Shown here: piece by piece, positions 37,507 to 38,485 of the stretch
How the letters are laid out: each line of letters begins with the position of its first letter
Position numbering within the stretch: position 1 is the stretch's first letter
From: Rhizodiscina lignyota
Lineage: Eukaryota
Direction of reading: 5' to 3'
Length of the DNA stretch: 64,000 nt
Assembly (NCBI GenBank): GCA_010015805.1
Contig: ML978121.1
Span: forward strand, 310,001-374,000
Position numbers and translations under genes: made by a program
The notes under the pieces: model-generated
The model's database searches: none
What the model was told of the DNA's origin: nothing
Seen by the model: only the letters and a program-made list of their open reading frames with translations

Positions 37507-38485
37507 ATGCATCACGTTACACCGACCCGGGGTAGAACCCACCTTACCTTCATTGGCGGCGGGACTATGGCATGTGCCATTTTAGACGGCCTTGCGGAGT
37601 CTGCATTGACAGCGTTTGGGCCTGGCCAAAAACCAGAATACTCTTTCAGTATCACCGCACGCCGGCAAGAGCGAGTAGTACAACTTTCAGCGCGATATCC
37701 TGGAGCATATGTCGCTGACAACAACGACGACGAAAAGCTTTGGCTGTTTGCCAAAGACGACAAGCCGGCAGCTCACATCATTCTGATCTGCACGAAACCG
37801 CAGTCAACGTTCGACGTATGTGAGAGCATCCGTCTTGCTCATGAAAAAGCGCCGATGCCATACAACTTGCCGACTGTGGTCACAATGTCTCCTGGCATCA
37901 CGATTTCGAAGCTTGAAAGCTGGCTGAATCCACAGAACCATCCAAAGCGTTTCACAGTGCTCAGGACAATGCCTAATACGCCAGTGTCCATACGCCAGGG
38001 TGCCACTGCGTTGGTTGCAAGTCGGCACGCAACAACCGCAGAAGTCGATCGTGTAATCGCACTGTTTCGTGTCTTCTCCCCGTGCGTTGAGACATTACCC
38101 GAGGAGAATCTCTTGGACGTGGCTGCGGCGGTCTCAGGGTAATTCTTATCTCTCTGTGCAAGGAAGCGGTCGCTAATGTGCGTGCAGTTCTGGACCTGCG
38201 TATCTCTTCCAATTTTACAAGTTTCTTGTTGCCGCTGGAGTCCAGTGGGGACTTCCTGAGAGTCTCGCGCGCTCTCTTGTGATGCAGACTGGTGTTGGCG
38301 CTAGTATGCTGGCGAATAATCAACCTGAAGTATCATTGAGTAGCATGATAGGGAATGTATGCGTGCCTGGTGGCAGCACTGAAAAGGGTATAAAAAGTCT
38401 GGTAGATGTCGGCTTACAGGCGGCTGTAACAAATGCTGTAGGCACCAGTCTTGAAGCTAATCACGGAATGAAGGGGCGTGAGTAG
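37507..38485 (+). CDS. Pyrroline-5-carboxylate reductase (ProC/PRO3 family)
   Basis: FIGGGTMA, CTKPQ, RTMPNTP, spliced SGSGPAY and VCVPGGST. One intron at about 38139-38188. Confidence 0.92.

Follow-up and report, generated by a model that had tools for sequence, protein, structure and literature searches.

A P5CR-like reductase gene beside the swn genes of Rhizodiscina lignyota as a candidate source of L-pipecolate for SwnK

We analyzed a stretch of 64,000 nucleotides (nt) of Rhizodiscina lignyota contig ML978121.1 (assembly GCA_010015805.1, positions 310,001 to 374,000; hereafter, the window), which is fungal DNA with a G+C content of 50.6% and no N. The window carries a swainsonine (SWN) cluster with a gene for a delta1-pyrroline-5-carboxylate reductase (P5CR)-like protein at its end (positions 37507 to 38485, plus strand). 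This gene probably encodes a cluster-dedicated reductase, likely to use NADPH, that turns delta1-piperideine-6-carboxylate (P6C) into L-pipecolate and thereby feeds SwnK, the nonribosomal peptide synthetase (NRPS) and polyketide synthase (PKS) hybrid of the cluster; we put the probability of this reading at about 0.6. The observation made in a preliminary description of the window is real, its reading was largely right, and both have some value for the question of which enzyme makes the pipecolate of swainsonine. Some of this is already known. The presence of the gene in swn-like clusters has been in print since 2021, with only a guess of an altered product in the passages concerned, and cluster-encoded P5CR homologues that supply pipecolate (i.e., APS3, APF3, and Kk1I) have been described. 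Among open-access papers and preprints, we found no paper that gives the P5CR-like gene a pipecolate-supply role in SWN clusters. Statements below on the apicidin, KK-1, ProC, and SWN literature follow the passages available from the papers in question.

The gene consists of two exons (Table 1). Its spliced coding sequence of 930 nt, from the ATG at 37507 to the stop codon at 38483 to 38485, encodes 309 amino acids (aa) (33.1 kDa) with zero internal stops, and the N terminus of the protein is kept in the alignment of its homologues. An ATG-initiated frame of 211 codons terminates just within the 49-nt intron, and prokaryote-style open reading frame (ORF) calls of homologues end at the same spot, likewise at 211 aa. 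The region from 35400 to 38600 was compared with contigs from four public runs (i.e., two biocrust metatranscriptomes and two runs from a related organism that we guess to be RNA). The gene model is confirmed and the orthologue is transcribed in close relatives, because all four runs hold a contig, approximately 93% identical to the window, that precisely skips these 49 nt. Since the contigs are assembled, their depths cannot rank expression, and we therefore make no statement on expression level; uncovered parts of the spacer carry no weight. The gap between the end of swnH1 at 36553 and the ATG of the P5CR-like gene, on the same strand, is 953 nt. The ORF, the Pfam matches, and the spliced contigs thus bear out the claim that an intact ProC-family gene lies about 950 bp downstream of swnH1.

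In one run (X4, record 17), both swnH1 and the P5CR-like gene are covered by a single contig of 3248 nt that lacks both introns and has a diverged spacer; it could reflect read-through, overlapping transcripts, or an assembly join. A 79-nt part of the spacer (36733 to 36811) is about 90% identical, with a 5-nt insertion, to abundant contigs of 1.1 to 1.2 kb in all four runs, and only this stretch aligns among the matches of those contigs to the spacer. Scans for tRNAs and Rfam families returned no tRNA and no Rfam family in the spacer, this part included.

The P5CR-like protein shows the fold of P5CRs and retains the PGG-S-T part of their substrate loop. Exon 1 matches Pfam F420_oxidored (PF03807) at 23.3 bits (cut-off, 21.6), and exon 2 matches P5CR_dimer (PF14748), the all-helical dimerization domain of the C terminus, at 70.8 bits (cut-off, 25). 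Scored separately against the proC equivalog model TIGR00112, exons 1 and 2 of the window gene reach 80.4 and 66.8 bits, respectively; full-length members of its clade, at 155 to 169 bits, fall short of the cut-off of 196.75. The protein carries the Rossmann glycine-rich motif FIGGGTMA after strand 1. In the clade alignment, the Arg-Arg pair that follows strand 2 hardly varies, the PGG-S-T loop is invariant, and SGSGPAY is invariant or nearly so, and the Arg pair and the loop together suggest the use of NADPH and a carboxylate-bearing substrate. The sequence VCVPGGST is carried by the window protein and by all 28 of the clade members examined, while V[TC]SPGGTT is found in 5 of 10 canonical representatives, namely, the five in which the search pattern matched. 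In an alignment to PYCR2, the Val of the clade aligns with the canonical Ser, and the P-G-G-S-T loop is kept. In the family loop, S/T-P-G-G-x-T, the Thr is the catalytic residue according to work on PYCR1. The fold was tested on a Clohesyomyces homologue (P0012) that is 72% identical to the window protein. Its AlphaFold model has a predicted local distance difference test (pLDDT) score of 84.3, and its best Foldseek matches are all solved P5CRs, with template modeling (TM) scores of 0.78/0.88 to Coxiella ProC (3tri). Entries for PYCR1 are also matched, including 8td9, which has L-pipecolate bound. A look-up in the ESM Atlas returned "P5CR, Ascomycota" and nothing further.

Judged by its sequence, the gene belongs to an APF3-like, cluster-associated fungal clade. 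Exon 1, searched against 5.8 billion proteins, had only 28 matches at an E value of ≤1e-5 among 619 word-sharing candidates. Named homologues come from Pseudogymnoascus (81% identity; a partial protein), Tothia (74%), Clohesyomyces (72%), Periconia (58%), and Amniculicola, and more distant ones from Fusarium beomiforme and Sordariales are 40 to 43% identical. An exhaustive HMMER run that used the Clohesyomyces homologue in full length recovered 13668 family representatives at an E value of ≤1e-3 and only 20 at ≤1e-30; the bulk of the family consists of ProC-like proteins of 260 to 290 aa scoring about 100 bits. With the F. beomiforme protein as the query, 101 matches were obtained among 4110 candidates, including proteins that NCBI names "apf3." A 295-aa protein of Fusarium fujikuroi (P0180) is 77% identical to this query and 43.3% identical to the window protein over 305 aa. 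It is very probably APF3, an identification made from name and length rather than from an accession, because its UniRef name begins with "Delta-1-p" and because the published 943-bp length of the APF3 gene (FFUJ_00013) fits 295 codons, a stop codon, and one intron of approximately 55 nt. The ten canonical ProC-type representatives share 28 to 31% identity with the window protein.

The preliminary description had called for a P5CR tree, and we built a maximum-likelihood tree of 38 rows, ten of them canonical, leaving out the partial Pseudogymnoascus protein. The window protein groups with the APF3-like fungal clade, which is split from the canonical rows with a support of 100/100. Within the clade, the proteins of the window, Tothia, Clohesyomyces, and Periconia, all from SWN-bearing species, form one group (100/99), which is sister (92/83) to a group comprising the Fusarium APF3 set and a Sordariales/Pyricularia set. 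The gene had been proposed to be a recruited paralog of the housekeeping P5CR gene PRO3; a recent recruitment does not agree with these data, which show an old fungal clade with a shared intron position and about 30% identity to canonical enzymes. As for protein architecture, P0034 (676 aa) consists of three tandem P5CR units and provides no informative fusion partner. P0045 (764 aa) is a continuous ORF in which an NRPS end (A10 motif, T, and C) is followed by a linker of about 15 residues and then by the exon-1 part of an APF3-like reductase of the Aspergillus type; this may be a genuine fusion of an NRPS with the reductase.

Genomic context ties the gene to the swn genes. A metagenome contig (L004) carries swnR(-), swnN(-), swnH1(+), and the P5CR-like gene(+), arranged as in the window; its proteins are 90 to 99% identical to those of the window, and it therefore stems from a close relative and not from an independent lineage. 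We did not find swnK, swnH2, the Zn-dependent alcohol dehydrogenase (Zn-ADH) gene, or the downstream genes of the window on this contig, and the SWN cluster may be rearranged or split in this relative. Because the block is the same and its flanks differ, the P5CR-like gene evidently stays with the swn genes. On the contig (L004:1-18338), the four-gene block has a G+C content of 0.50 to 0.55 and lies between AT-rich, gene-poor flanks of 0.31 to 0.41. In Kuhnert 2021, Xylaria hypoxylon, Hypomontagnella submonticulosa, and Pseudogymnoascus sp. VKM F-4515 are described as having the gene in their swn-like clusters. On a further contig (L001:5703-10987), the gene for a P5CR-like protein with 58 to 69% identity directly follows an unrelated A-T-C NRPS gene. 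Short-chain dehydrogenase/reductase (SDR) and HAD genes lie close by, and swn genes were not found within 10 kb. This placement fits amino-acid supply better than indolizidine tailoring. The locus looks like a different, uncharacterized cluster with the same kind of reductase. Clade genes were thus seen beside A-domain enzymes in the window, at the end of the swnK cluster, and in L001, with L004 carrying the same block as the window.

The distribution of the gene runs partly opposite to that of swnA. Neyaz 2022 reports no swnA in any of the Pleosporales and Xylariales studied there, nor in Fusarium sp., Tothia, Pseudogymnoascus, and Rhizodiscina; the P5CR-like gene was seen, here or by Kuhnert 2021, in these same taxa. 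Four of the five genera with close homologues belong to these taxa or orders; the fifth, Amniculicola, is unmentioned in the passages available. Neither the exon-1 query nor the F. beomiforme query matched a clade member from Metarhizium or Onygenales, which bear swnA and are heavily sequenced. Complementarity is imperfect, since Alternaria oxytropis, Pyrenophora seminiperda, and Slafractonia are without swnA and yet are not among the matches to these two queries; A. oxytropis depends partly on an unlinked P5CR. In the window itself, Pfam scans of 13 ORFs and of 71 of the 110 ORFs that reach 110 aa or more detected no aminotransferase (swnA) domain and no SwnT-type transporter domain, although a gene with many introns could escape such scans. 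The other 39 ORFs were in the 13-ORF scan or overlapped assigned genes in another frame or strand. The statement that the cluster lacks swnA accordingly holds for aminotransferase matches in the scanned ORFs; it is partly checked and limited to the window.

We propose the following route. alpha-Aminoadipate semialdehyde from fungal lysine metabolism would cyclize to P6C, the P5CR-like enzyme would reduce the C6=N aldimine of P6C with NADPH to L-pipecolate, and the adenylation domain of SwnK would activate and load the product. The reductase would in this way take over the pipecolate supply to which SwnA contributes in Metarhizium-type clusters. Fungi are known to make the semialdehyde in lysine metabolism, and its cyclization gives P6C. 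By comparison, delta1-piperideine-2-carboxylate (P2C) is a ketimine, which is normally handled by other reductase families. A dedicated L-pipecolate supply, as first suggested in the preliminary description, is the best-supported reading through the APF3 relative and the swn linkage; P6C as the substrate, the cofactor, the source of P6C, and the loading of pipecolate by this SwnK are what we infer.

The closest functional evidence comes from the apicidins. Deletion of APF3 in F. fujikuroi lowers apicidin F about 100-fold and leaves as the main product apicidin J, in which proline replaces pipecolate, and deletion of aps3 in Fusarium semitectum leads to apicidin B. F. fujikuroi holds two further P5CRs, only 28% and 23% identical to Apf3. 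In Curvularia clavata, the P5CR homologue of the KK-1 cluster, kk1I, is the proposed pipecolate maker; it is needed for the full KK-1 yield, which is lowered by its deletion. Escherichia coli ProC has been reported to reduce P6C, in agreement with the earlier claim that P5C reductases can do so, and the same source cites APF3 as a specialized homologue. Loading of pipecolate by the SwnK A domain, which had been taken as established, was shown for the SwnK of a reconstitution preprint, which prefers L-pipecolate, and not for that of the window; in the same preprint, the product of SwnA is P2C, and an Aspergillus nidulans SwnK reporter forms 1-hydroxyindolizidine only with L-pipecolate feeding or with SwnA. 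A search with the A-domain region of the window SwnK returned only multimodule bacterial NRPSs among the 120 matches listed. This A domain and that of the L001 NRPS are identical at 147 of 544 aligned positions. A rough placement of their pocket positions from motif anchors shows no shared code, and we draw nothing from this comparison.

Several points weigh against a pipecolate-supplying role. In the window protein and in the 28 clade members, the loop Pro is preceded by Val instead of the Ser or Thr of the family, so that the canonical loop Ser is replaced. The evidence from APF3 and APS3 is genetic only, and APF3 shares no more than 43% identity with the window protein. Cultures of Xylaria or Hypomontagnella yielded no swainsonine (Kuhnert 2021), and the authors of that study proposed a change in product structure through the P5CR-like protein. 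Both swnA and the P5CR-like gene are missing from swainsonine producers such as A. oxytropis, and a dedicated pipecolate supply is therefore not required. As regards linkage, what this analysis generated comes only from close relatives (90 to 99% protein identity), and Tothia, Clohesyomyces, and Periconia are known only as SWN-bearing species, their homologues not having been placed inside those clusters. Finally, the T-C-P5CR-like ORF of P0045 could equally point to the reduction of an NRPS product.

This last point leads to the strongest of the alternatives, namely, that the substrate is a cyclic imine or iminium from within the alkaloid pathway, such as one released by SwnK or formed later, and that its reduction alters or streamlines the product instead of supplying a precursor. 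P0045 joins an NRPS T-C end to a clade member, and a reductase so placed could act on the product of the NRPS; moreover, several pathway iminium intermediates need dedicated reductases according to the preprint, which gives these roles to SwnR and SwnN. However, the cluster of the window already holds both swnR and swnN, and the carboxylate-binding PGG-S-T loop and SGSGPAY are invariant or nearly so in the clade, whereas the indolizidine iminium ions are without a carboxylate. The characterized relative APF3 works in precursor supply, and other relatives are found beside unrelated NRPSs. We consider such a tailoring role unlikely.

Still less probable, in our view, is the alternative raised in the preliminary description, in which a dedicated P5C reductase supplies L-proline to a proline-loading SwnK that makes a pyrrolizidine-type analogue. 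The conversion of P5C to proline is the canonical reaction of the family, an A domain that uses pipecolate can also take proline (as in apicidins B and J), and the product of this cluster lineage is chemically uncharacterized. Proline is, however, already made by the housekeeping P5CR, and a dedicated copy is therefore less needed. APF3 deletion strips pipecolate, not proline, from the product, the clade scores of 155 to 169 bits lie under the proC equivalog cut-off, and the SwnK of the preprint prefers L-pipecolate. That the gene is an ordinary housekeeping PRO3 standing beside the cluster by chance is very improbable: it is an intact, expressed member of the family, and our view of the genome is limited to the window, but a universal PRO3 orthologue would have many close relatives in Ascomycota, and the close homologues are few and patchy (28 at ≤1e-5; 20 of 13668 at ≤1e-30); the protein itself shares about 30% identity with canonical enzymes and scores under the TIGR00112 cut-off, with F. 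fujikuroi holding two other P5CRs besides its clade member and the swn linkage persisting across flanking rearrangements. The probability that remains falls to other substrates.

Identity of the P5CR-like gene with swnR was also considered, since Cook 2017, in the passages available, describes swnR only as a "Rossmann-fold reductase," and was rejected. The P5CR-like gene is of a different family and has an intron. Published SwnR has 305 aa (34.87 kDa) and an intronless gene; these features, together with the NmrA/NAD_binding_10 family, do not fit the P5CR-like gene and do fit the minus-strand ORF at 31732 to 32649, which is the true swnR. In addition, translated A. oxytropis swnR quantitative PCR (qPCR) primers resemble two stretches of this ORF. 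Consistently, the exon-1 search of 5.8 billion proteins found no SwnR of Metarhizium, Trichophyton, or Alternaria among the homologues, and Kuhnert 2021 describes the Metarhizium robertsii cluster as lacking the P5CR-like gene.

The presence of both genes bears on a disagreement over SwnR. In Luo 2020 (as cited) and in the knockout papers on A. oxytropis, P6C is reduced by SwnR, while in the reconstitution preprint neither SwnR nor SwnN makes L-pipecolate and an unknown host reductase is invoked. A swnA-less lineage with swnR and a reductase of the APF3 clade is a natural test case in this disagreement and provides a candidate dedicated P6C reductase. The redundancy of swnR and a P5CR-type enzyme in one cluster argues against SwnR as the pipecolate-forming reductase. 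Tentatively, SWN clusters might come in two largely exclusive supply forms, one with SwnA (through P2C) and one with an APF3-like reductase (through P6C from lysine biosynthesis); the latter, with the gene order of the window, would be a distinct, chemically uncharacterized branch that might make a new indolizidine, and it too would argue that SwnR is not pipecolate forming. The P5CR-like gene marks a group of chemically uncharacterized SWN-like clusters, and genome mining could use it to flag assembly lines that take pipecolate.

The remaining genes of the cluster are listed in Table 1. The order in the window, swnK(-) swnH2(+) Zn-ADH(+) swnR(-) swnN(-) swnH1(+) P5CR-like(+), matches the accession order in Neyaz 2022 (Table 1 therein), where K, H2, one slot with an unassigned accession, R, N, and H1 follow one another in Pseudogymnoascus, Tothia, Rhizodiscina, and Periconia. 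The Zn-ADH gene occupies the slot unassigned in these four taxa. It does not adjoin swnR in the close relative represented by L004. The same source finds swnH2 next to swnK in nearly all SWN clusters. We named swnH1 from its place in the conserved K-H2-X-R-N-H1 order and not from a reference sequence; its 80-nt GT..AG intron is skipped in all four runs, and the spliced frame is open. Pfam scans at an E value of ≤10 on ORF pieces from 32.9 to 34.8 kb gave nothing useful for swnN, which was recognized by reading the ORFs; its counterpart on L004, 95 to 99% identical, matches the NmrA and NAD_binding_10 families weakly.

Table 1. Genes of the SWN cluster in the window and parts of the P5CR-like gene
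Feature	Positions	Strand	Description	Basis
P5CR-like gene, exon 1	37507..38138	+	Residues 1-211; Rossmann NADP-binding part	ORF, Pfam, TIGR00112
P5CR-like gene, intron	38139..38187	+	49 nt; GT..AG; CTAAT branch site	Sequence and spliced contigs
P5CR-like gene, exon 2	38188..38485	+	Dimerization and substrate-loop part; VCVPGGST at residues 268-275	
swnK	20103..27719	-	Hybrid NRPS-PKS, A-T-KS-AT-KR-T-R; 2538-aa open frame	Pfam domain set
swnH2	28596..29432	+	PhyH-type dioxygenase; ends approximate	Pfam PhyH; adjoins swnK
Zn-ADH (medium-chain dehydrogenase/reductase, MDR), "X"	30367..31377	+	Zn-dependent alcohol dehydrogenase; 5' end approximate	Pfam ADH_N and ADH_zinc_N
swnR	31732..32649	-	NAD_binding_10/NmrA-like reductase; intronless; 305 aa; 35.0 kDa	Pfam, size, primers
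swnN	33376..34513	-	NmrA-like reductase; 4 exons (34513-34409, 34351-34113, 34057-33702, 33647-33376); 323 aa	ORF pieces and spliced model
swnH1	35553..36553	+	PhyH-type Fe/2-oxoglutarate (2OG) dioxygenase; exons 35553-36182 and 36263-36553; 306 aa	Pfam PhyH

Outside these genes, an extended-SDR reductase of the Epimerase/3Beta_HSD type (12506 to 13318, minus strand) and an MFS transporter (14947 to 16293, plus strand) lie 4 to 7 kb past the 3' end of swnK. Farther downstream, the window contains an AtuA/DUF4387 pair (47522 to 49487, minus strand) and a D-Ala-D-Ala-ligase-type ATP-grasp ORF (58715 to 59902, plus strand), the latter unusual for a fungus; neither has an evident link to the SWN cluster. 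Near them are a P450, a cutinase, RTA1, a Zn2Cys6 factor, and a 2OG oxygenase.

Among known systems, the canonical enzymes ProC, PRO3, and PYCR1 share with the P5CR-like protein the fold, the domain pair, and the motifs GxGxxA, MPNTP, SGSGPAY, and PGG-x-T, and they also reduce P6C and bind L-pipecolate. The P5CR-like protein differs from them in its identity of 28 to 31%, its score below the proC cut-off, its loop Val in place of Ser/Thr, and its patchy rather than universal distribution. SwnA and SwnR of Metarhizium-type clusters are both proposed, as the P5CR-like protein is here, to contribute to the pipecolate supply of SwnK. In contrast to it, SwnA is a pyridoxal phosphate (PLP)-dependent aminotransferase that transaminates lysine to P2C, and SwnR is an NmrA-like reductase of another family, of which the window has its own gene. 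Kk1I of C. clavata is, like the window protein, a cluster-encoded P5CR homologue (311 aa) with a proposed conversion of P6C to L-pipecolate; it was compared by description, and its best database match is a Periconia protein under another accession. APF3 of F. fujikuroi and APS3 of F. semitectum probably belong to the same fungal clade, with VCVPGGST and about 43% identity; APF3 is of similar size (295 versus 309 aa), with a gene length that fits one short intron. Both genes lie within a biosynthetic cluster, next to a megasynthase that activates amino acids, and are separate from the housekeeping P5CRs. The differences are that APF3 works for an NRPS of four modules, which produces a cyclic tetrapeptide, whereas the partner of the window gene would be an NRPS-PKS with a single A domain, which would yield an indolizidine, and that the SWN-linked proteins form a subgroup of their own (100/99).

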